Shown: positions 540 through 10,092, counted from the first letter of the stretch. The stretch: DNA of 64,000 bases from Candidatus Enterousia sp. (GCA_045617905.1 JAZLJO010000014.1:72743-136742), one strand, 5' to 3'. Notes: generated by a model from the letters alone, not told the origin. Made by a program: numbers and translations.

Positions 540-866
540 AAGCGCTTTATATAATATACTGTTTGAAATATAAATGCAAGTATTTTTTAAAATTTTATCA
601 ATTAATTATACATAATTGTATATCTGAATAAAAAAACATAACCAATAAAATCTAACCAACGTTTTTTATTCATGCAGGAATCATATCACAAAATGCCAGA
701 AATCTCAATCTTTTTGTCTTTAATTATAATAAAAATCTAACGTTCGATTAATCTTTCTTCTAAAACACAAAAATATCCCGATCCACAGGTTGATTGTGAT
801 ATTGCAAATATCGACATTATTGAACGTAATTTACACCCCGATATATTAAAAATATTATTATCGGAC

Positions 867-1721
867 ATGACAACCGGGCATAACATTGTATGGGCATGTG
901 ATGATTATATTATATATGGGAATAAATATAAACCCGGCTGTCAAATCACAAAAGATTTAATCACACACAAAACAAATAAAAACATTATCCAACCACGTAT
1001 TTTAAAAGAAAAGTGTTATCAACGCGAACGCACCAAAACCCATGCCGAGGTTTTTACCCCATCCTGGATATGCAATGAAATGAACAATTATTGTGATGAA
1101 GAATGGTTTGGCAGAAAAGACGTTTTTAACACAGTAAATAATGATAACACATGGACGGCGACAACAACACCAATATATGTCCCGGGTGACAAACAATGGC
1201 ATCAATACGTTTTATCAAAACGAATTGAAATTACCTGTGGCGAGGCCCCGTATTTAGTATCACCATACGACACAACCACAGGAAAAATTATTCCAATTGA
1301 ACAACGTATCGGACAATTGGACCGAAAATTACGTGTAATAAACGAAAATATGAATTCGGAACGTTATTGGTTTGATTGGGCGGCAAAGGCATACCAAAGC
1401 ACATACGGATATGAATTTCAGGGTGATAATTTATTATTGGCACGTGAAAATCTGCTTTATACGTTTATTGATAATTACAAATTTAAATTTGGCAAAGAAC
1501 CAAATATTCAAAAACAAAAGAAAATAGCCCAAATAATCGCATGGAATATGTGGCAAATGAACGGTTTAACAGATTGCACACCGTTCAGTTCTGAATCCGG
1601 CGACTTTTATCAAATGGGCATGTTTGGCAGTGCCCCATTACCATGCCGGATTATTGATTGGGAAAAAAATTTACAAATATTTTTCAAAGATTTAAAAAAG
1701 GAAAACAGCAATGAAATTTGA
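867..1721 (+). CDS. N6-adenine DNA methyltransferase (Eco57I/TaqI-like gamma class), N-terminal fragment; reading frame breaks in an A6 run
   Basis: Motif I-like AEVFTPSWICNEM and an SAM-loop-like IEITCGEAPYL. The frame ends 10 nt after the start of the next ORF, which continues in the +1 frame. Confidence 0.55.
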   Translation: MTTGHNIVWACDDYIIYGNKYKPGCQITKDLITHKTNKNIIQPRILKEKCYQRERTKTHAEVFTPSWICNEMNNYCDEEWFGRKDVFNTVNNDNTWTATTTPIYVPGDKQWHQYVLSKRIEITCGEAPYLVSPYDTTTGKIIPIEQRIGQLDRKLRVINENMNSERYWFDWAAKAYQSTYGYEFQGDNLLLARENLLYTFIDNYKFKFGKEPNIQKQKKIAQIIAWNMWQMNGLTDCTPFSSESGDFYQMGMFGSAPLPCRIIDWEKNLQIFFKDLKKENSNEI

Positions 1722-2724
1722 TTTTTGCATTGGTAATCCACCATATCAGGAAATGAAACAAGATACTTCTGATAAACCTGTTTATGATAAATTTATGATT
1801 GCTTCATATGATATCAGTACTGTTGTAGAATTAATTACACCTGCTAGATTTTTATTTAACGCAGGAAAAACTCAAAAGCACTGGAATGAAAAAATGCTTA
1901 ATGATGAGCATTTTAAAGTTTTGCATTATTTTCCAGATGCAGGCAAGGTATTTCCTAATACAGATATTAAAGGGGGAGTAGCTGTTCATTTATACAACAA
2001 AACTCAAAAATTTGCAGCAACACAAATTTTTACATCATTCATGGAATTAAATAGCATTTTAAACAAGGTCCGTGCAAATGAAAATTTTTTTATAGATTCT
2101 TATGTTTATTCAGAAAGTAGTTATAGGTATACTCAAGAACTTATGAATGAAAAACATGAATTAGTCCAGAGATTAAAAAAATCCAGTCAAAATTTTGTTG
2201 CTTCTAATGCATTTGAAATTCTTCCGGAAATATTTTCTGAAAAAAGGAATGATGATGACATAGAAATAATAGGACGTTTTTGTAATTCTAGAACATCACG
2301 ATTTATAAAAAAGAAATATATCAATGGCCCAGATAATTTTGATAAGTATAAAATATTTTTACCTAAAGCAAATGGTTCAGGAGCATTAGGAGAAATACTT
2401 TCTACTCCACTGATTGGCCATCCACTGATTGGCCATACCCAAACATTTATATCCATAGGATTGTTTGAAAAAGAATCTGAGGCAGAAGCCTGTTTAAAAT
2501 ATATAAAAAGTAAATTTGCAAGAGTTTTGCTAGGTGTCCTTAAAATAACACAAGATAATAAGAAAAATGTTTGGAAGTATGTCCCATTACAAGATTTTAC
2601 AGAAAATTCGGATATAGATTGGTCAAAGTCTATTCATGAAATAGATTTACAATTATATAAAAAATACGGTTTGGATGATGCCGAGATTGATTTTATCGAA
2701 ACACATGTAAGGGAGATGCAGTAA
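1711..2724 (+). CDS. N6-adenine DNA methyltransferase C-terminal fragment (catalytic motif IV NPPY plus target-recognition region)
   Basis: FDFCIGNPPYQ motif IV at the N-terminus. Its frame is open upstream only back to 1696, inside the A6 run (1694-1699). Deleting one A fuses it in frame with 867-1721. Confidence 0.6.
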   Translation: MKFDFCIGNPPYQEMKQDTSDKPVYDKFMIASYDISTVVELITPARFLFNAGKTQKHWNEKMLNDEHFKVLHYFPDAGKVFPNTDIKGGVAVHLYNKTQKFAATQIFTSFMELNSILNKVRANENFFIDSYVYSESSYRYTQELMNEKHELVQRLKKSSQNFVASNAFEILPEIFSEKRNDDDIEIIGRFCNSRTSRFIKKKYINGPDNFDKYKIFLPKANGSGALGEILSTPLIGHPLIGHTQTFISIGLFEKESEAEACLKYIKSKFARVLLGVLKITQDNKKNVWKYVPLQDFTENSDIDWSKSIHEIDLQLYKKYGLDDAEIDFIETHVREMQ

Positions 2725-5700
2725 TGAAAAAACTGAATATCAAAACTCGTTCTGCTGTTGTTCCAATGTGTTATGCATATACCACACCGGAAATACAGCG
2801 ACATAATGGTTGGACAAAAATAGGTTATACTGAAAATGATGTAAAACAACGTATTGCACAGCAAACACAAACCGCGGATGTTCGGACTGTTTTACATTGG
2901 TACGAAAAAGCAATCTATGCAGATGGCAGTGGTGATACTTTTTCTGACAAAGATTTTCATACATATTTAATCAAAAATGATGTTGCGCGTTTAGATAATA
3001 CTGAATGGTTCAAAATATTACCGGATAAATCCCATGATATGTTTTTCGATTTTACTAAAAATCGTGGGGTATTAACCAGTTTTGGCGCAATTGATTATAC
3101 ATTACGCGCAGAACAAGCAAAGGCCGTTCATGATGCCAAAAGATATTTTGATGCTAAAACATCTTTAGATGAACCAGAATTTTTATGGAATGCCAAACCA
3201 AGATTTGGAAAGACATTATCAGCCTATGATTTATGTAAACAATTGGGGGCACAAAAGGTTTTAATTTTAACCAATTATCCTGCGGTCGCAAATTCTTGGT
3301 ATAATGATTATGTTAAATTTTTGGGAACAGAATCCGGATATTATTTCGTTAGCCAGGTCGATGCATTAAAAGGAAAAAAATACGTTTTAAGCCGTGAACA
3401 ATATACAAAACATTTATCAGACCCCAACCATAAGGGATGTATTGAATTTATATCGCTGCAGGATTTAAAAGGATCCAGATATTTTGGTGGACAATACGAT
3501 AAATTACAGGAAGTGGCCACGATAAAATGGGATTTGTTAATTATTGATGAAGCACATTATGCCGTAGATACATTTAAATCCGGTATTGCTTTTGATCATA
3601 TACAACGAAAATACACATTACATTTATCTGGCACCCCGTTCAAAGCCATTGCAAATATGAAATTTGATAACGATGCCATATTCAATTGGACATATGTTGA
3701 TGAACAAACCGCAAAACGTAACTGGCCAAAATATAGCGAAGAAGAAAATCCATATGCTGTGATGCCACAACTAAATATGTACACATATCAAATGTCCGAT
3801 ATTGTGCGCGATAAATTACAACACGGTGCAGATTTTGATAATGATGGTGAAGACGAGGCGTATGCATTTGATTTGAACGAATTTTTTATAACAAATGCAG
3901 ATGGAAATTTTAAACACGACGAATCTGTTGATAAATTTTTGAATGCACTGGTTACACAAACCCGTTTCCCATTCTCTACACCTGAATTACGTAATGAATT
4001 AAATCATACATTCTGGTTATTACAATATGTTGACAGTTGTAAAGCATTAGCTAAAAAGTTAAAAGAACATCCCGTATTTAAAGAATACGAGATTGTACTG
4101 GCTGCTGGTGATGGCAGACTAGATGAAGAAGAAGCAAGTATAAAAGCATACGATAAGGTTGTTAAGGCAATAAAAGAACACGATAAAACCATTACATTAT
4201 CCGTTCGTCAACTGGCAACCGGTATCACAATTCCGGAATGGACAGCAGTATTGATGTTAGGTAACATGAAAACGCCTGAATTATATATGCAGGCTGCATT
4301 TCGTGCACAAAATCCATGCTTGTTTAAAACAAAAGATGGCAAATTGCAACGGAAAGAAAATGCATATGTATTTGATTTTGATCCATCCAGAACATTAACT
4401 GTGTTTGATGACTTTGCAAACAATAACCATTCTGGGACTGCTGGGGGACGTGGCGATACAGATACACGAAAAAAACAAATAAAAGAACTTTTAAACTTCT
4501 TTCCTGTATATGGCGAAGATGATAGTGGTGAAATGATATCGTTGGATCCAGAAAAGGTTTTGACGATACCACGCAAAATTCACGCCAAAGAAGTGGTTCA
4601 TCGTGGTTTTATGAGTAACTTCTTATTCCAAAACATACATAATTTATTCAATGCCCCACAAAGCGTAATCGATGCCGTTAATAATATTGCAGCGGTTAAA
4701 GAACCAACAACAATTACCCCTAAAACAGGCGAATCATTGAATATTAATCCAGAAACCGGCGACATTGAAATACCACAAGAAACTGTTGTTGGGTTGGCCA
4801 CAGATGTATTTGGCGAAAAAATTTATGGCAAACAAGAAATTGAATCAAACAAACAACCTGCCATAAATATTCCAGACAACATAAACAAAAATTCTGTTTT
4901 AGATGAAATGAAACAGGATTGTAAAAATAATGTAATAACACCTTTAATAGATAAAGCAAAAGAAAAATACGGCAAAGATGTAACGAAAACTACAATACAA
5001 TCTATCGAAAAAAAAGCTGTTGCTGCGGCTGATTTCGAAATTAATAAAATTTATGCTGATCACCAAATTGAAAAATCCACATTAGAATCACAAAGACAAG
5101 ACGCAATTGCTGTTGCATTAACCAAAGACGACAAAAAAACCGTAGAATTACTGTATGACGCAAAACAGGCAGAATTAGATCAACAATTCAAACAAACAGT
5201 TGCAGAAAAAGAGAAAGAAATAATAAAGCAAACCTGTGAAACGATTGTTACGCAGATTGAAATTAATAAAAATAATAAAGAAAAAAATAAAAAAGAAGAC
5301 GAAATACGCGACCATTTACGTGGTTTTGCACGCAGTATACCGGCGTTTTTGATGGCATATGGGGATGAAAATACCACATTGGAAAATTTTGACACTATTA
5401 TTCCCGCCAATGTTTTTCAAGAGGTCACTGGTATAACGCTGGATCAATTTATAATGTTACGCGATGGTGCAGATTATTTTGATGAACAGACCGGTACTAC
5501 CCAGCATTTTGAAGGACATTTATTTGACCCTATTGTTTTTAATGATTCTGTTATCGAATTTTTAAATAAAAAACAAAACTTGGCAAACTATTTTGATGAA
5601 AATAATACAGAAGATATTTTTGATTACATTCCACCACAAAAAACCAACCAAATATTTACACCCAAAAAGGTTGTGAAAGAAATGGTTAATTATTTGGAAC

Positions 5701-6038
5701 AAGAAAATCCCGGATGTTTTGATGACCCAAATAAGACTTTTATCGACCTGTATATGAAATCAGGTTTGTATATAACAGAAATTGTTAAACGCCTATATAA
5801 TAGTATCGGGTTAAAATCTGCATATCCCAACGGGGCGGAAAGATTAAGACATATATTTGAAAAACAAATATACGGACTTGCCCCAACAGAAATTATATAT
5901 CGTATTGCAACAAATTATATTTTGGGTTTTGATAAAACATCACAAATAACAAAACATAATTTAAAAATGTTTGACACATTACCTTCGGCCCAAAAAGGAA
6001 CACTTGAACAGGATTTAGATAATGTTTTTAAAAATTAA
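2724..6038 (+). CDS. defence-type fusion protein: N-terminal T5orf172/GIY-YIG-like domain + SF2 (DEAH) helicase + coiled-coil linker + C-terminal methyltransferase motif-I fragment (no NPPY)
   Basis: GWTKIGYTEN...RLDNTEWF (T5orf172 signature ending EWF). Walker A RFGKTLSAY, motif II LLIIDEAHY, motif III LHLSGTP, motif VI QAAFRAQNP. C-terminal QIFTPKKVVKEMV...FIDLYMKSGLY resembles Eco57I-family motifs X/I. Start overlaps the previous stop (ATGA). Confidence 0.6.
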   Translation: MKKLNIKTRSAVVPMCYAYTTPEIQRHNGWTKIGYTENDVKQRIAQQTQTADVRTVLHWYEKAIYADGSGDTFSDKDFHTYLIKNDVARLDNTEWFKILPDKSHDMFFDFTKNRGVLTSFGAIDYTLRAEQAKAVHDAKRYFDAKTSLDEPEFLWNAKPRFGKTLSAYDLCKQLGAQKVLILTNYPAVANSWYNDYVKFLGTESGYYFVSQVDALKGKKYVLSREQYTKHLSDPNHKGCIEFISLQDLKGSRYFGGQYDKLQEVATIKWDLLIIDEAHYAVDTFKSGIAFDHIQRKYTLHLSGTPFKAIANMKFDNDAIFNWTYVDEQTAKRNWPKYSEEENPYAVMPQLNMYTYQMSDIVRDKLQHGADFDNDGEDEAYAFDLNEFFITNADGNFKHDESVDKFLNALVTQTRFPFSTPELRNELNHTFWLLQYVDSCKALAKKLKEHPVFKEYEIVLAAGDGRLDEEEASIKAYDKVVKAIKEHDKTITLSVRQLATGITIPEWTAVLMLGNMKTPELYMQAAFRAQNPCLFKTKDGKLQRKENAYVFDFDPSRTLTVFDDFANNNHSGTAGGRGDTDTRKKQIKELLNFFPVYGEDDSGEMISLDPEKVLTIPRKIHAKEVVHRGFMSNFLFQNIHNLFNAPQSVIDAVNNIAAVKEPTTITPKTGESLNINPETGDIEIPQETVVGLATDVFGEKIYGKQEIESNKQPAINIPDNINKNSVLDEMKQDCKNNVITPLIDKAKEKYGKDVTKTTIQSIEKKAVAAADFEINKIYADHQIEKSTLESQRQDAIAVALTKDDKKTVELLYDAKQAELDQQFKQTVAEKEKEIIKQTCETIVTQIEINKNNKEKNKKEDEIRDHLRGFARSIPAFLMAYGDENTTLENFDTIIPANVFQEVTGITLDQFIMLRDGADYFDEQTGTTQHFEGHLFDPIVFNDSVIEFLNKKQNLANYFDENNTEDIFDYIPPQKTNQIFTPKKVVKEMVNYLEQENPGCFDDPNKTFIDLYMKSGLYITEIVKRLYNSIGLKSAYPNGAERLRHIFEKQIYGLAPTEIIYRIATNYILGFDKTSQITKHNLKMFDTLPSAQKGTLEQDLDNVFKN

Positions 6039-6070
6039 TATATGATTTATATAACATAGCATAACTATAA

Positions 6071-6099
6071 AAAACGCCCCAAAAGGGGGCGTTTTTTAT
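6071..6099. terminator. bidirectional intrinsic terminator (aaaaACGCCCCaaaaGGGGGCGTttttt)
   Basis: GC-rich hairpin with A-run and T-run flanks between the convergent 2724-6038 (+) and parC (-). Confidence 0.6.
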
Positions 6100-8328
6100 T
6101 TTCCAAATTTACCACTGCGTGGGAAACCCAATGGAATTGTTCGTCCCTGTGATGCACGTTTTGCCACCCACGGTTTCCAATCATCTAACTTTGTTGTTCC
6201 CCGTCCTGTTGTCCATCCAAAACCATTTGCCGCATCAAAGAACATAACGTCCAAAACATATGTGCGTTCTGCGTTATATTTTTGCAATATTACCCCTTTA
6301 CCACGGGCCATTTCTGGAATTTCAGATGCAGCAAATATTAACAATTTGTCGTTTGAACCGGATACAGCAACCGTATCACCAGATGCCGGCAAACACATTA
6401 TTGCAGGATTCTGTGCATCAACATTCATAACCTGTTTACCATTTTTGGTTTGTGCAATACAGTTTTCACCGGATACAACAAATCCATTTCCATGTCGTGC
6501 AACAACCAAATATTTAGCATTCGTATCCAAAACAAATATACGAACAATTTCTTCATCCGCACCAATATCCGCCATCATACGAACAGATTCACCAAAACCA
6601 CGCGCCGATGGCAAATCGTTTGCCGATAATGTAAACATTTTCCCAGATGATGTAAACATATTAATTTTATCCGTGGACATCGCATGGAATGCCGTCTGCA
6701 ATGCATCACCTTCTTTGAATTTAACATCTAAATTATTCAAATCCATATGCCCCTTGGCGGCACGAATCCACCCCATTGTCGACAATATTACCGTCAATGG
6801 TTCTTTTTCAATAAATTCATCTGTATTAACAACGATTTCTTCAGATTGTTCCGCCCACTCTGAACGACGACGACCCAACGCTGTTTTTTTATCATAACGC
6901 TTTTTAATATCTGCAAACCATAACTTTAATTGATCATTTTGTGCAGATTCATTCGCCAATAAATCTTGTAATTTTTGCTGTTCTGCACGTAAATCCGCAT
7001 CTTCACGACGAATTTCCATTTCTTCCAATTTACGCAAACTGCGCAGACGGGTATTTAATATGGCTTCGACCTGAATGTCCGTCAAATTAAATTCTGCAAT
7101 CAATACAGTCTTTGGATCATCTTCGTTACGGATAATTTCAATAACACGATCCAAATTTAAATACACAATCAATAAACCACCCAAAACCTCCAAACGGCGT
7201 TCAATGTTTGTTAAACGCCACTTTGTACGACGTTGTAAAACATCTTTTTGATGTGCAATAAATTCACGTAAAACATCACCAATTCCCATAACACGTGGTG
7301 CCCCTTTGGAATCAATGACATTCAAATTCATATTAAACCGATATTCTAAATCTGTTGTGGCAAACAGATGGGCCATCATCTTATCAGCCGGCACATTACG
7401 ATTTTTTGGTGTAATAACAATCCGAACATCGGTTGTTGATTCATCTGCGATATCATCAACCAATGGTAATTTTTTAGAATCGATTAACCCTGCAATCTGT
7501 TCAACCAATTTTGATTTTATTATCCCGTATGGAATTTCTGTAATCACAGCCTGCCATCCACCACGTTCCAAATTTTCAACAGACCATTTTGCACGAATAC
7601 GAAATGCCCCACGTCCTGTTTCATAATTCTTAATAATGGTATCCATGCTATCAATCAAAATACCACCGGTTGGAAAATCTGGCCCCGGCATTCTTTTTAT
7701 AATCTGGGCCGTCGTCGCATCGGGGTTATCTATAACCAATGCCAATGCATCACAAACCTCGGCCACGTTGTGTGTTGGGATATTTGTTGCCATACCAACC
7801 GCAATTCCCATACCACCATTGGCCAACAAATTTGGAAAAGCACCCGGCATAACAGTCGGTTCCAGCGTTGTACCATCAAAATTTGGCATCATTTCAACAC
7901 TGTTTTCATCGATTCCTTCCATAATCAACATGGCGGCATCAGTCATTTTTGATTCAGTATAACGGTATGCCGCCTGCGGGTCACCATCAATATTACCAAA
8001 GTTTCCCTGACCATCAATTAAAGGATATCTGACCGAAAAGTCTTGGGCCAAACGCACCATCGCATCATAAACAGAACTGTCACCATGTGGATGATAATGT
8101 CCCAACACATCACCAACAACCGTGGCACACTTACGGAACGCAGCCGCAGGCGACAATTTTTGGCGTAACATGGAATACAAAATACGACGGTGCACAGGTT
8201 TCAATCCATCACGTACATCAGGCAATGCACGTGATACAATGGTACTGACCGCATATGATAAATAGCGTTCGGACAACGCCTCGGCTAATTGTTGTGAATC
8301 AATATTCTCTATTATTTCCTTACTCATG
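6096..8328 (-). CDS. parC: DNA topoisomerase IV subunit A (ParC); GyrA not excluded
   Basis: [20 protein letters not shown] active-site region. ~743 aa and no obvious GyrA box favour ParC. Start taken at MSKEII; the track's longer N-terminal extension is judged spurious. Confidence 0.65.
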
Positions 8329-8402
8329 ACGACTGAAAATTTATAACATTTCAAAAAAAATAACAACAGAAAAATAGCCCACACATTTTGTAGGCCATAT
8401 TT

Positions 8403-8884: not shown

Positions 8885-8967
8885 ACTGCCAGTTTAAAAT
8901 ATTTTTTATATGCGTTCAATACAAAATATGATATAATATACCAGATTAATTTATGGGGAAAAAATCA

Positions 8968-10092
8968 ATGAAAACAAAAATCATATATATTTCAGGCAGT
9001 GAATTTTTTGACATGTCCGATATCCGGACCGCATTTGAACAGGTTCGGACCGCTGCATCTTTGCCAACAGACACCGTATTATTTGGCATCCCCGTTGATT
9101 CTGATGACGCATTGGCAACAATTAATACCAATAATATAAAAATTTCAATATCAAACGAAACAAATAAAATGGACGAAAATCCCCAAACAAACGTCCCAGA
9201 AATTACCGAGAATACAATTACATCTGACATAACAGATAATGATAATAATAATAATAATACAATTTCACAAAACGACCAGGTATCTGTTACAGACACAGAC
9301 ACCCCAAAGGTCCCTAAGAAATCCCGTCGTCGTATAAAAACAGAATCGGAACCTGTTTTAAATCATAAAGATACCCCACACACAGTTGACGATACAGATA
9401 TCACATCCATTTCAACAACAGACGCCACACCCGTTCCAATTTTATCGGTATTGGCAAAACATAACAATAACACAGAATCTGTTTCACAATCTGACGCCAC
9501 AGATATTCCAGATTATAAACCAACATCAGGAATCGTTTCAGAAACATCTGAAACAATTGATGATTCAAACGATGTTGAACAAAATACAATCGAACAATCC
9601 CAAAAAAATCCAATATCAATTGATGAAGAAATTGTTGCTAACGATCCCGACACAATAAACCAAATTGAAAATATTGCCGATAAAATCGCGGAAAATCCAC
9701 CAATGGAAATAACAACATTGGAAGAATTACTGGATGGGATGGAACCATTAAGTGAATTTCATGAGACAAAACAATCTATAGTTTCATGGGACGAATCTTC
9801 AACTGAAAACACAACAACATATCAAACCACCGACGCAACAACCGAAGATGGAACCGATATGACATTAGAAAAATTGGCCAAAGATTTATTAAACAGTGAA
9901 AATCAGTATTCCGAAACACCACATGAATCCCACAGTAAAATCGGCAAATTAAAAAACATATTACCATTTAAAAAAGCCAAACGCGATGATTCTGGCATAA
10001 TGGGTATGGGCGATTTATTCGGATGGGCAGGCGTGGCAAATGATGACGATTTTACCATGCCAGGATTTTTCACCAGCACATCTAAAAAATAA
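8968..10092 (+). CDS. hypothetical acidic, Asn/Asp/Thr/Ser-rich, largely disordered protein with a structured N-terminal ~60 aa
   Basis: ORF with GGGGA 9 nt upstream of the ATG at 8968 (track starts it at 8953). Low-complexity poly-N and acidic tracts. No recognisable domain. Confidence 0.45.
   Translation: MKTKIIYISGSEFFDMSDIRTAFEQVRTAASLPTDTVLFGIPVDSDDALATINTNNIKISISNETNKMDENPQTNVPEITENTITSDITDNDNNNNNTISQNDQVSVTDTDTPKVPKKSRRRIKTESEPVLNHKDTPHTVDDTDITSISTTDATPVPILSVLAKHNNNTESVSQSDATDIPDYKPTSGIVSETSETIDDSNDVEQNTIEQSQKNPISIDEEIVANDPDTINQIENIADKIAENPPMEITTLEELLDGMEPLSEFHETKQSIVSWDESSTENTTTYQTTDATTEDGTDMTLEKLAKDLLNSENQYSETPHESHSKIGKLKNILPFKKAKRDDSGIMGMGDLFGWAGVANDDDFTMPGFFTSTSKK

Follow-up and report, generated by a model that had tools for sequence, protein, structure and literature searches.

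The 64,000-nucleotide stretch of Candidatus Enterousia sp. analysed here (GCA_045617905.1 JAZLJO010000014.1:72743-136742; hereafter the window) carries three plus-strand open reading frames (ORFs) in a low-GC segment between a tRNA-Asp gene and a parC-like gene, and these are read, with moderate confidence, as an intact, mobile, ATP-dependent restriction-modification system of Type ISP-like character, built from three modules of which one, B, is common to the other two, A and C. ORF2 (module B) contains the catalytic half of a gamma-class N6-adenine methylase (the NPPY motif and strands b4–b7) together with a target-recognition domain (TRD), and lacks the cofactor-binding half (motifs X and I–III). 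Under this reading, that half would be supplied by ORF1 (module A), and A·B would be the protective methylase. ORF3 (module C) has a GIY-YIG (T5orf172) nuclease, an SF2 translocase, and a divergent N-lobe that would dock on B; C·B would thus be the restriction enzyme, with a specificity exactly that of the methylase. At an unmethylated site, C·B is predicted, by analogy with Type ISP enzymes, to hydrolyse ATP, translocate, and cut with its GIY-YIG domain. A broader principle is offered more tentatively, namely that a methylase fold has been split between motifs III and IV, and that its C-half alternately completes two N-halves, of which A is cofactor-competent and the other is tethered to a GIY-YIG-translocase.

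Pfam and PADLOC searches with hidden Markov models have borne out the domain content that an earlier, sequence-only reading of this DNA had assigned to the three ORFs. ORF1 (867–1721, plus strand, 284 residues) codes for a stand-alone methylase N-lobe (gamma class, N6-adenine), and PDLC03390, a REBASE-derived MTase_II model in PADLOC, matches it at 1e-96. It possesses motifs X (EVFTPSW), I (EITCGEAPY), II (YGYE), and III (IDW), and the A genes of all architectures described below are 43–80% identical to it, with EITCGEAPY, YGYE, IDW, and motif X invariant. The sequence-only reading had cited FTPSWICNEM as motif I and NPPY as motif IV; both sequences are present, but in the standard gamma-class nomenclature FTPSWICNEM is motif X, and the motif I of ORF1 is EITCGEAPY. 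ORF2 (1711–2724, plus strand, 337 residues) comprises the catalytic C-lobe, from GNPPYQ onwards, and the TRD; it begins with MKFDFCIGNPPYQ, ends in the conserved tail SDIDWSKSIHEIDLQLYKKYGL, and has the lowest GC content of the block (29.5%). Pfam Eco57I matches it at 2.9e-14, as do the PADLOC models MTase_II PDLC03375 (5.5e-36) and REase_MTase_IIG PDLC03626 (model positions 1012–1359, 2.8e-32).

ORF3 (2724–6038, plus strand, 1104 residues), the putative restriction subunit, opens with a T5orf172 or GIY-YIG-type nuclease domain (2772–3017, plus strand; residues 17–98). The Pfam T5orf172 (PF10544) match is near the threshold (4e-4; 21.3 bits against a cut-off of 20), and residues Y17, K32, G34, R43, H79, and E94 are invariant in 13 divergent members. 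An SF2 ATPase/translocase core follows (3096–4400, plus strand), with motifs GKT, DEAH, SGTP, and QAAFRAQ; residues 125–306 match Pfam ResIII at 2.2e-11, residues 433–528 match Helicase_C weakly, and positions 333–623 of PDLC03626 are matched at 5.1e-17. Beyond it lies a long, mostly helical linker rich in lysine and glutamate (4640–5306, plus strand; residues ~640–860), the sole modelled part of which, residues 835–869, forms one long helix (model residues 2–35). The remainder (5307–6035, plus strand; residues ~862–1104) is a C-terminal helical subdomain with a second N-lobe, whose motifs are FTPKKVV (X), FIDLYMKSGLY (I-like), and YGLAPTE, the last without the acidic residue of motif II. The D..K-S-G signature and motif X of this lobe are invariant, and Ala or Lys-Pro occupies the acidic position of motif II in all lineages examined. 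ORF3 is not a standard Type III Res or Type I HsdR protein lacking a methylase-like C-terminus, and the NPPY-less methylase lobe reported from the sequence alone is indeed present. The sole PDB sequence matches of the family profile fall at about residues 257–306 (window ~3490–3640, from DEAH to LSGTP) and are to Snf2-type ATPases, at non-significant values (E 0.2–2), a hint that the motor may be Snf2-like rather than HsdR- or Res-like.

The relation of B to the two N-lobes is most apparent from structure prediction. AlphaFold modelling of ORF3 residues 835–1104 together with ORF2, using an alignment of natural C-B fusions, gave a mean predicted local distance difference test (pLDDT) score of 88.9 and a predicted template modelling (pTM) score of 0.76. 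In this model the ORF3 lobe supplies strands b1–b3 (FID, IYGLA, and KMF) and ends exactly where B begins, with b4 (FDFCIG) and everything after it coming from ORF2. The corresponding model of ORF1 and ORF2, based on an alignment of natural A-B fusions and on a construct joining ORF1 from the upstream VDCDI, the ETA linker of a sister allele, and ORF2, gave a pLDDT of 82.9 and a pTM of 0.77, with b1 (IEIT) and b2 (GYEFQ) from ORF1 and b4 (FDFCIG) from ORF2. Both pairings, A with B and the C tail with B, are therefore predicted to fold as a complete gamma-class methylase, and the two N-lobes complement the same C-half. In A-B and C-B natural fusions alike, the Pfam Eco57I (PF07669) match crosses the split point, and the Eco57I-type motif order X, I, II, III, IV (NPPY) with a full Rossmann fold is found in the pairs only. 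If the strand order is the usual one of methylases, as the match to solved structures implies, b1 and b4 would be neighbours in the sheet and neither half should be a stable domain alone, so that both lobes would need B. When compared with the PDB by Foldseek, the models matched CamA (1e-14 for the ORF3 tail with ORF2; 3e-11 for ORF1 with ORF2), and the former matched LlaBIII (4xqk) at 1e-11 and LlaGI (5ffj) at 1.5e-10; both models also matched LlaBIII/LlaGI, BrxX/PglX, M.BseCI, BpuSI, DrdV, and MmeI. Searches of PDB chain sequences with the three ORFs and with A-B and C-B family profiles returned no meaningful match, and fold comparison alone was productive.

Natural proteins join the same parts in single chains. 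Homologues of ORF3 fall into at least 8000 clusters, and the best 120 are 1026–1129 residues long and 60–100% identical over 93–100% of the query. The last 270 residues of ORF3 matched 884 proteins in a search of 1.84 billion representative proteins, and among the best 150 of these were 72 near-complete proteins, 47 of which share one end, a ..GTLE..LD..F tail. In the remaining 25 the chain runs straight on into MKFD..GNPPYQ, followed by a TRD and then by the tail ..SDIDWS..I..QLY.KYGL, all of which are ORF2-like. The junctions are colinear, with no residue missing: the window has ..LDNVFKN at the end of ORF3 and MKFDFCIGNPPYQ at the start of ORF2, and the natural fusion P0188 reads ..LKQIFGTEN MKFDVVVGNPPYQ. 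These single chains and the model support the suggestion that the orphan lobe is completed in trans, with ORF2 as the missing part; the ‘separate full methyltransferase’ envisaged alongside it proves to be ORF1 plus ORF2, one of two alternative pairings of ORF2. With thousands of full-length homologues of ~1100 residues sharing its end point, ORF3 is not decayed, and the idea that it might be a degenerate Type ISP gene can be set aside. Another protein of the family, P0143 (1381 residues), is of the C type, but its N-lobe leads into a ~280-residue extension that is unlike B and contains a PD-(D/E)xK-like motif (GDGDF...DFKVSK).

For a wider census, each species was represented by a single genome and searched with a profile of A, which gave at least 582 matching stretches; 80 loci were kept, all of them found with A. 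Matches occur in Firmicutes, Bacteroidetes, Alphaproteobacteria, Verrucomicrobia, Synergistetes, and Planctomycetes, as well as in Fibrobacter, Mycoplasmopsis, Treponema, Melainabacteria, and one Methanocorpusculum metagenome-assembled genome (MAG). With a slash for a gene boundary and a hyphen for a fusion, the architectures were A/C-B in 30 of the 80 loci, A/B/C in 17, and A-B/C in 13; 15 were cut by contig ends and five were frameshifted or disrupted. The census recorded the order A, B, C in all 80 loci, with A never missing, and the single-chain C-B proteins (about 1310–1390 residues) are adjoined by a stand-alone A of 308–319 residues. Plasmids add further variants, including A/C/B with all three separate in L. 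plantarum and A/IS256/B/C in B. longum, while A/C-B is found on plasmids of Enterococcus and Lactococcus. The constant of the family is thus always two N-lobes and one C-lobe, and the attachment of the C-lobe alone varies. The Methanocorpusculum sp. MAG (L080, 7980–13276) presents a complete A/B/C operon in a contig binned as that of a methanogenic archaeon, which reflects a transfer between domains of life or else an error in binning.

The window's B is 77% identical to an A-fused B (P0278) and 51% identical to the C-fused B of P0188, and one B family therefore serves in both settings. Its behaviour as an exchangeable unit is best illustrated by a sister MAG (MCQ2599044.1 / MCQ2599378.1; P0127, P0121), in which MCQ2599044.1 is a 1104-residue protein annotated in an Alphaproteobacteria MAG. 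Between this MAG and the window, A is identical at 278 of 281 positions and C at 1102 of 1104, whereas B is identical at only 170 of 310 (55%), with the first 14 and last ~32 residues the same. B accordingly emerges as a swappable specificity cassette, and the difference looks like a recombinational replacement of that cassette. In the sister MAG, B is fused to A (..KKETAMKFDF..), and the window, to judge from the sister protein sequence, has one extra A in the run at 1702–1705; one A fewer there would fuse ORF1 and ORF2 likewise. The replacement is accompanied by a change of the A/B junction from fused to split. A programmed -1 frameshift at A AAA AAG (1693–1699) was considered and ruled out, since the -1 frame soon stops and it is the +1 frame that contains ORF2. 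Phase variation by an invertase and silent cassettes of B were likewise ruled out, there being no second copy of A, B, or C in the 64-kb window and no recombinase in the block.

In the window, B has its own translation signals, a Shine-Dalgarno (SD)-like AAGGA (1698–1702, plus strand) followed by the ATG at 1711 (1698–1713 in all), within the end of ORF1 and with an 11-nucleotide overlap. Comparable signals persist where B is fused. Among 46 fused genes drawn from loci L001–L090 (for example, L021:1934-5989, L024:8920-12957, and L044:3060-7040), the position of the B start is ATG, GTG, or TTG in 39. In the 37 non-Bacteroidetes genes, the longest upstream SD match averages 5.3 nucleotides, against 1.6 at other in-frame Met codons; in the nine Bacteroidetes genes, eight have ATG at the B start, and the preceding region is A/T-rich and without SD. 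This suggests that an internal translation start may yield free B in every architecture.

Upstream of ORF1 is an AT-rich leader of the acquired segment (608–866, plus strand; 24.5% GC over 541–866), with promoter-like sites at 587–616 and 830–858 and, by Rfam, no non-coding RNA. The ancestral N-terminus of ORF1 survives in frame at 789–866, now without a start codon: its translation, VDCDIANIDIIERNLHPDILKILLSD, aligns with the homologues' N-termini MDA(G/D/N)CDI.... In relatives, A starts 26–28 codons upstream, at ATG GAT GC. GAT TGT, where the window reads GTT GAT TGT; the ORF1 frame is open from 741, and a stop codon lies 16 codons upstream of GTT GAT TGT. The ATG at 867 is a conserved internal Met, and initiation there drops ~26 conserved residues; the sister genome is annotated with the same internal start. 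The promoter-like site at 830–858 would put the transcript start at this ATG, giving a possible leaderless mRNA.

Several points weigh against the proposal of one B shared by A and C. No biochemical or methylome evidence was found for any family member, and it is from natural fusions that the pairing of separate chains is inferred. The ORF1 and ORF3 lobes are similar at motif X alone (BLASTP E 0.002; hhalign probability 22%), and their homology therefore rests on structure and colinearity. The A-B/C and A/C-B architectures leave one N-lobe without a dedicated B, and would call for a hypothetical exchange of lobes or for free B from an internal start, the SD-like signal of which could come partly from a conserved K-K-G-E peptide or from recent fusion events. 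Binding of S-adenosylmethionine (AdoMet) by the C lobe is doubtful, as the motif II acid is missing, yet the motif I acid and one Gly are kept. A has lost its ancestral start codon, and the window copy may be impaired or started from a rare codon. Finally, the analogous DnmA-YeeB-YeeC cluster of Bacillus subtilis showed no restriction when tested (PMC9973331).

It is possible, though rather unlikely, that C·B is a self-sufficient bifunctional enzyme of Type ISP/IIG-like character, with A as an auxiliary (a second or maintenance lobe, or a regulator) and with A, B, and C perhaps in one stable complex without any exchange of lobes. The commonest architecture does provide a single C-B chain of about 1310–1390 residues, which is covered by the PADLOC REase_MTase_IIG model; Pfam Eco57I aligns from the C lobe into B; the C lobe retains its invariant D..K-S-G and motif X; and LlaBIII and LlaGI, the closest solved multidomain analogues, are bifunctional. 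A dispensable A is hard to reconcile, however, with its presence in every locus, with the highest cross-phyla identity of the three modules, and with invariant AdoMet motifs, and the C lobe lacks the acidic residue of motif II throughout the lineages examined. Moreover, A·B and C·B would have B in common and so would both methylate one and the same base, making two active methylases redundant. The preferred division of labour, with A·B modifying and C·B restricting, would assign distinct tasks to the two lobes that B would engage in vivo.

Decay has also to be considered, in which case the block would be a relic, with its methylase split by a frameshift, its ORF1 start lost, and its restriction gone, at most methylating in the manner of the orphan-like DnmA. 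The missing ATG-GAT of ORF1, the additional A by which the window departs from the reading frame of the fused sister allele, and the non-restricting DnmA-YeeB-YeeC cluster (PMC9973331) would all fit such a history, but it is improbable: the three ORFs are otherwise intact and translationally coupled, split A and B are a common natural form, the same 11-nucleotide overlap occurs in an A/B/C relative that is 55–61% identical (seen in the contexts of ORF3 homologues), and ORF2 comes with an SD and an ATG of its own. Ahead of ORF1 the frame is open and conserved over 26 codons, the sister genome shares the start, and C differs at just 2 of 1104 residues between the two genomes. Least likely of all is that no cleaving restriction enzyme is involved, and that the block acts through BREX-like blocking of replication, or as a helicase-nuclease on other substrates, with the methylase for self-marking. 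BrxX/PglX counts among the best matches by structure, T5orf172 domains have been little characterised and are matched only marginally here by Pfam, and cleavage by C·B is a prediction by analogy. Nevertheless, the catalytic residues of the GIY-YIG domain are invariant, the three ORFs gave no match to models of BREX or DISARM partners, the operon has three genes only, and the order of nuclease, translocase, methylase, and TRD is that of Type ISP enzymes. The shared-B restriction-modification system, with its presumed role in defence, remains the reading to which moderate confidence is attached.

Among known systems, the Type ISP enzymes LlaGI and LlaBIII (PDB 5ffj and 4xqk) have the same order of nuclease, SF2 ATPase, gamma-class N6-adenine methylase, and TRD. 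They are borne on plasmids of lactic acid bacteria (PMC3553950), as is the present family in part. Type ISP enzymes use ATP to translocate away from their site and cut when two of them collide, a mode that is predicted for C·B by analogy. Their N-terminal nuclease is of the Mrr or PD-(D/E)xK type, whereas that of ORF3 is GIY-YIG/T5orf172; they are single polypeptides, whereas the window has three, cut inside the methylase fold; and the present family has an extra stand-alone N-lobe, A, even beside its single-chain relatives. No sequence similarity to LlaGI or LlaBIII was detectable in searches with the ORFs and the family profiles. A single PADLOC model, REase_MTase_IIG PDLC03626 (1359 positions), is matched towards its front by ORF3 and towards its back by ORF2, and its length is that of the C-B fusions in 30 loci. 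The window enzyme differs from Type IIG in being in three pieces, with motifs IV–VIII and the TRD absent from ORF3 and located on ORF2. PADLOC treats A and B as independent Type II methyltransferases, and misses the unit of two N-lobes per C-lobe.

The DnmA (YeeA)-YeeB-YeeC systems of Bacillus subtilis and Vibrio crassostreae likewise have a single operon for three activities, those of a IIG/IIL-type N6-adenine methylase, an SF2 helicase, and a T5orf172/GIY-YIG protein (PMC9973331), and they share the mobile or defence-island contexts of the present family. To go by their description, they are set apart by a single MmeI-like methylase and by separate helicase and T5orf172 proteins, the T5orf172 domain being C-terminal, whereas here the T5orf172 domain is N-terminal and in one chain with the helicase, to which a second N-lobe is also joined, and the methylase comes in two parts; none of the three ORFs has an MmeI-family Pfam match. 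With Type I systems there is a common logic, in that an exchangeable B would serve both a methylase and a translocating complex, much as HsdS is shared by M2S and R2M2S, but B is no HsdS and carries the catalytic NPPY half of the methylase; HsdR, HsdM, and HsdS models in Pfam, NCBIfam, and PADLOC did not match the three ORFs, and NCBIfam added nothing beyond the Pfam and PADLOC matches. Type III (Mod/Res) systems share the ResIII helicase with ORF3, but have a C-terminal PD-(D/E)xK nuclease and a beta-class Mod, as opposed to an N-terminal T5orf172 domain and the gamma-class motif order.

Naturally split DNA methylases are represented by M.AquI and M.EcoHK31I alpha/beta, in which one fold is made from two polypeptides; both are C5-cytosine enzymes with one partner each. 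The present methylase differs in being N6-adenine and gamma-class, in being split between motifs III and IV, and in having two alternative partners for its C-half. The family as such is not novel, as the sequence-only reading had thought it might be, because PADLOC and REBASE-derived models match all three ORFs and NCBI annotates homologues on many plasmids of enterococci and lactic acid bacteria. What appears to be new is the organisation, in which B is shared by two N-lobes; the parts are known and are recognised by REBASE-derived models. No description of this tripartite sharing arrangement was found in the searchable literature, the scope of which excluded REBASE and many subscription papers.

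The block is, as far as its sequence context indicates, horizontally acquired, accessory, and mobile. The segment 608–6060 has a GC content of 32.9%, lower than in any other 5.45-kb stretch, for which the minimum in the window is 34.1%, and modules A, B, and C were found downstream of parC in none of 80 metagenomic loci (L091–L170; ParC 74–89% identical), as would be anticipated for the accessory island originally proposed. The homology of these relatives to the window is limited to about 444–607 and resumes at about 6061–6067, and their parC–tRNA-Asp interval is 0.76–8.4 kb long, in either orientation and rearranged. No exact insertion scar or clean empty site was found among the parC relatives, and the absence of the block from them is clear. 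Elsewhere, homologues have resolvases, integrases, and prophage genes as neighbours; members of the family are present in 85 plasmid records, for the most part from enterococci and lactic acid bacteria, and a near-full-length match lies in one human-gut phage record that has no annotation. Searching the 64-kb window with the three proteins revealed no extra copy of A, B, or C, nor an integrase, in keeping with what had been noted before, and no recombinase was seen among the ORFs of the block.

The left neighbour, outside the system, is tRNA-Asp (GTC), at 463–539 on the minus strand (ARAGORN; Rfam tRNA, 68 bits). Its promoter side faces the three ORFs, and the block lies on its 5′ side, not 3′ of it as the sequence-only reading had placed the spacer. 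With the wrong side of the tRNA, no integrase, and no convincing att repeat, this is not a tRNA island in the usual sense. The sole att candidate was an imperfect AT-rich direct repeat of 50 nucleotides, 70% identical between 584–633 and 6025–6074, and it was not found convincing; it coincides with the points at which homology ends and resumes, which may be chance in AT-rich DNA. Among the relatives, the parC–tRNA interval of L108 and L159 contains, as judged by eye, a small reverse-strand gene resembling that of ribosomal protein L33, a further stretch similar to a tRNA, and a small ORF whose N-terminus looks like that of a lipoprotein, and L170 has a C-lobe-like ORF 8.6 kb downstream of parC.

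Within the block, overlaps of 11 nucleotides between ORF1 and ORF2 and of one nucleotide (TAATG) between the ORF2 stop and the ORF3 start indicate a single, translationally coupled operon. Its right boundary is a bidirectional hairpin terminator (6067–6099, both strands; ATAAAAAACGCCCC / GGGGCGTTTTTTAT), a perfect inverted repeat with 14-nucleotide arms (6067–6080/6086–6099) that abuts the parC stop codon. The terminator had been regarded as shared with parC; the hairpin is there and also serves the operon, but it is parC's own, and is kept in relatives without the block. The parC-like gene itself was delimited mechanically as an ORF at 6096–8384 on the minus strand, and its GTG start adds a hydrophobic 19-residue extension. 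Translation probably begins instead at 8327, with the Met of MSKEIIEN, where the relatives' full-length matches begin (query residue 1); MSKEIIEN was also the search pattern for the parC relatives. Near parC, a 379-residue ORF (8953–10092) has low-complexity runs and a high content of N, T, D, S, and E, and may encode a secreted, surface, or disordered protein.

If B does serve both partners, the family would represent a second, independent answer to the problem solved by HsdS in Type I systems, that of holding methylase and nuclease to a common specificity that can change rapidly, and the answer in this case would be to cut the methylase fold. Should the alternating use of the C-half hold true, modification and restriction would rely on one swappable cassette and yet be physically exclusive, and the fused genes would go on supplying free B from a retained internal translation start adapted to the host. 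Current pipelines label the parts as unrelated Type II methyltransferases, a helicase, and a restriction endonuclease, and annotating A, B, and C as one unit would improve both the annotation of defence systems and the interpretation of methylomes. A natural split methylase with exchangeable halves would, moreover, be attractive for programmable methylases or nucleases, and the family is relevant to the phage resistance of dairy starter cultures and to the biology of Enterococcus plasmids.

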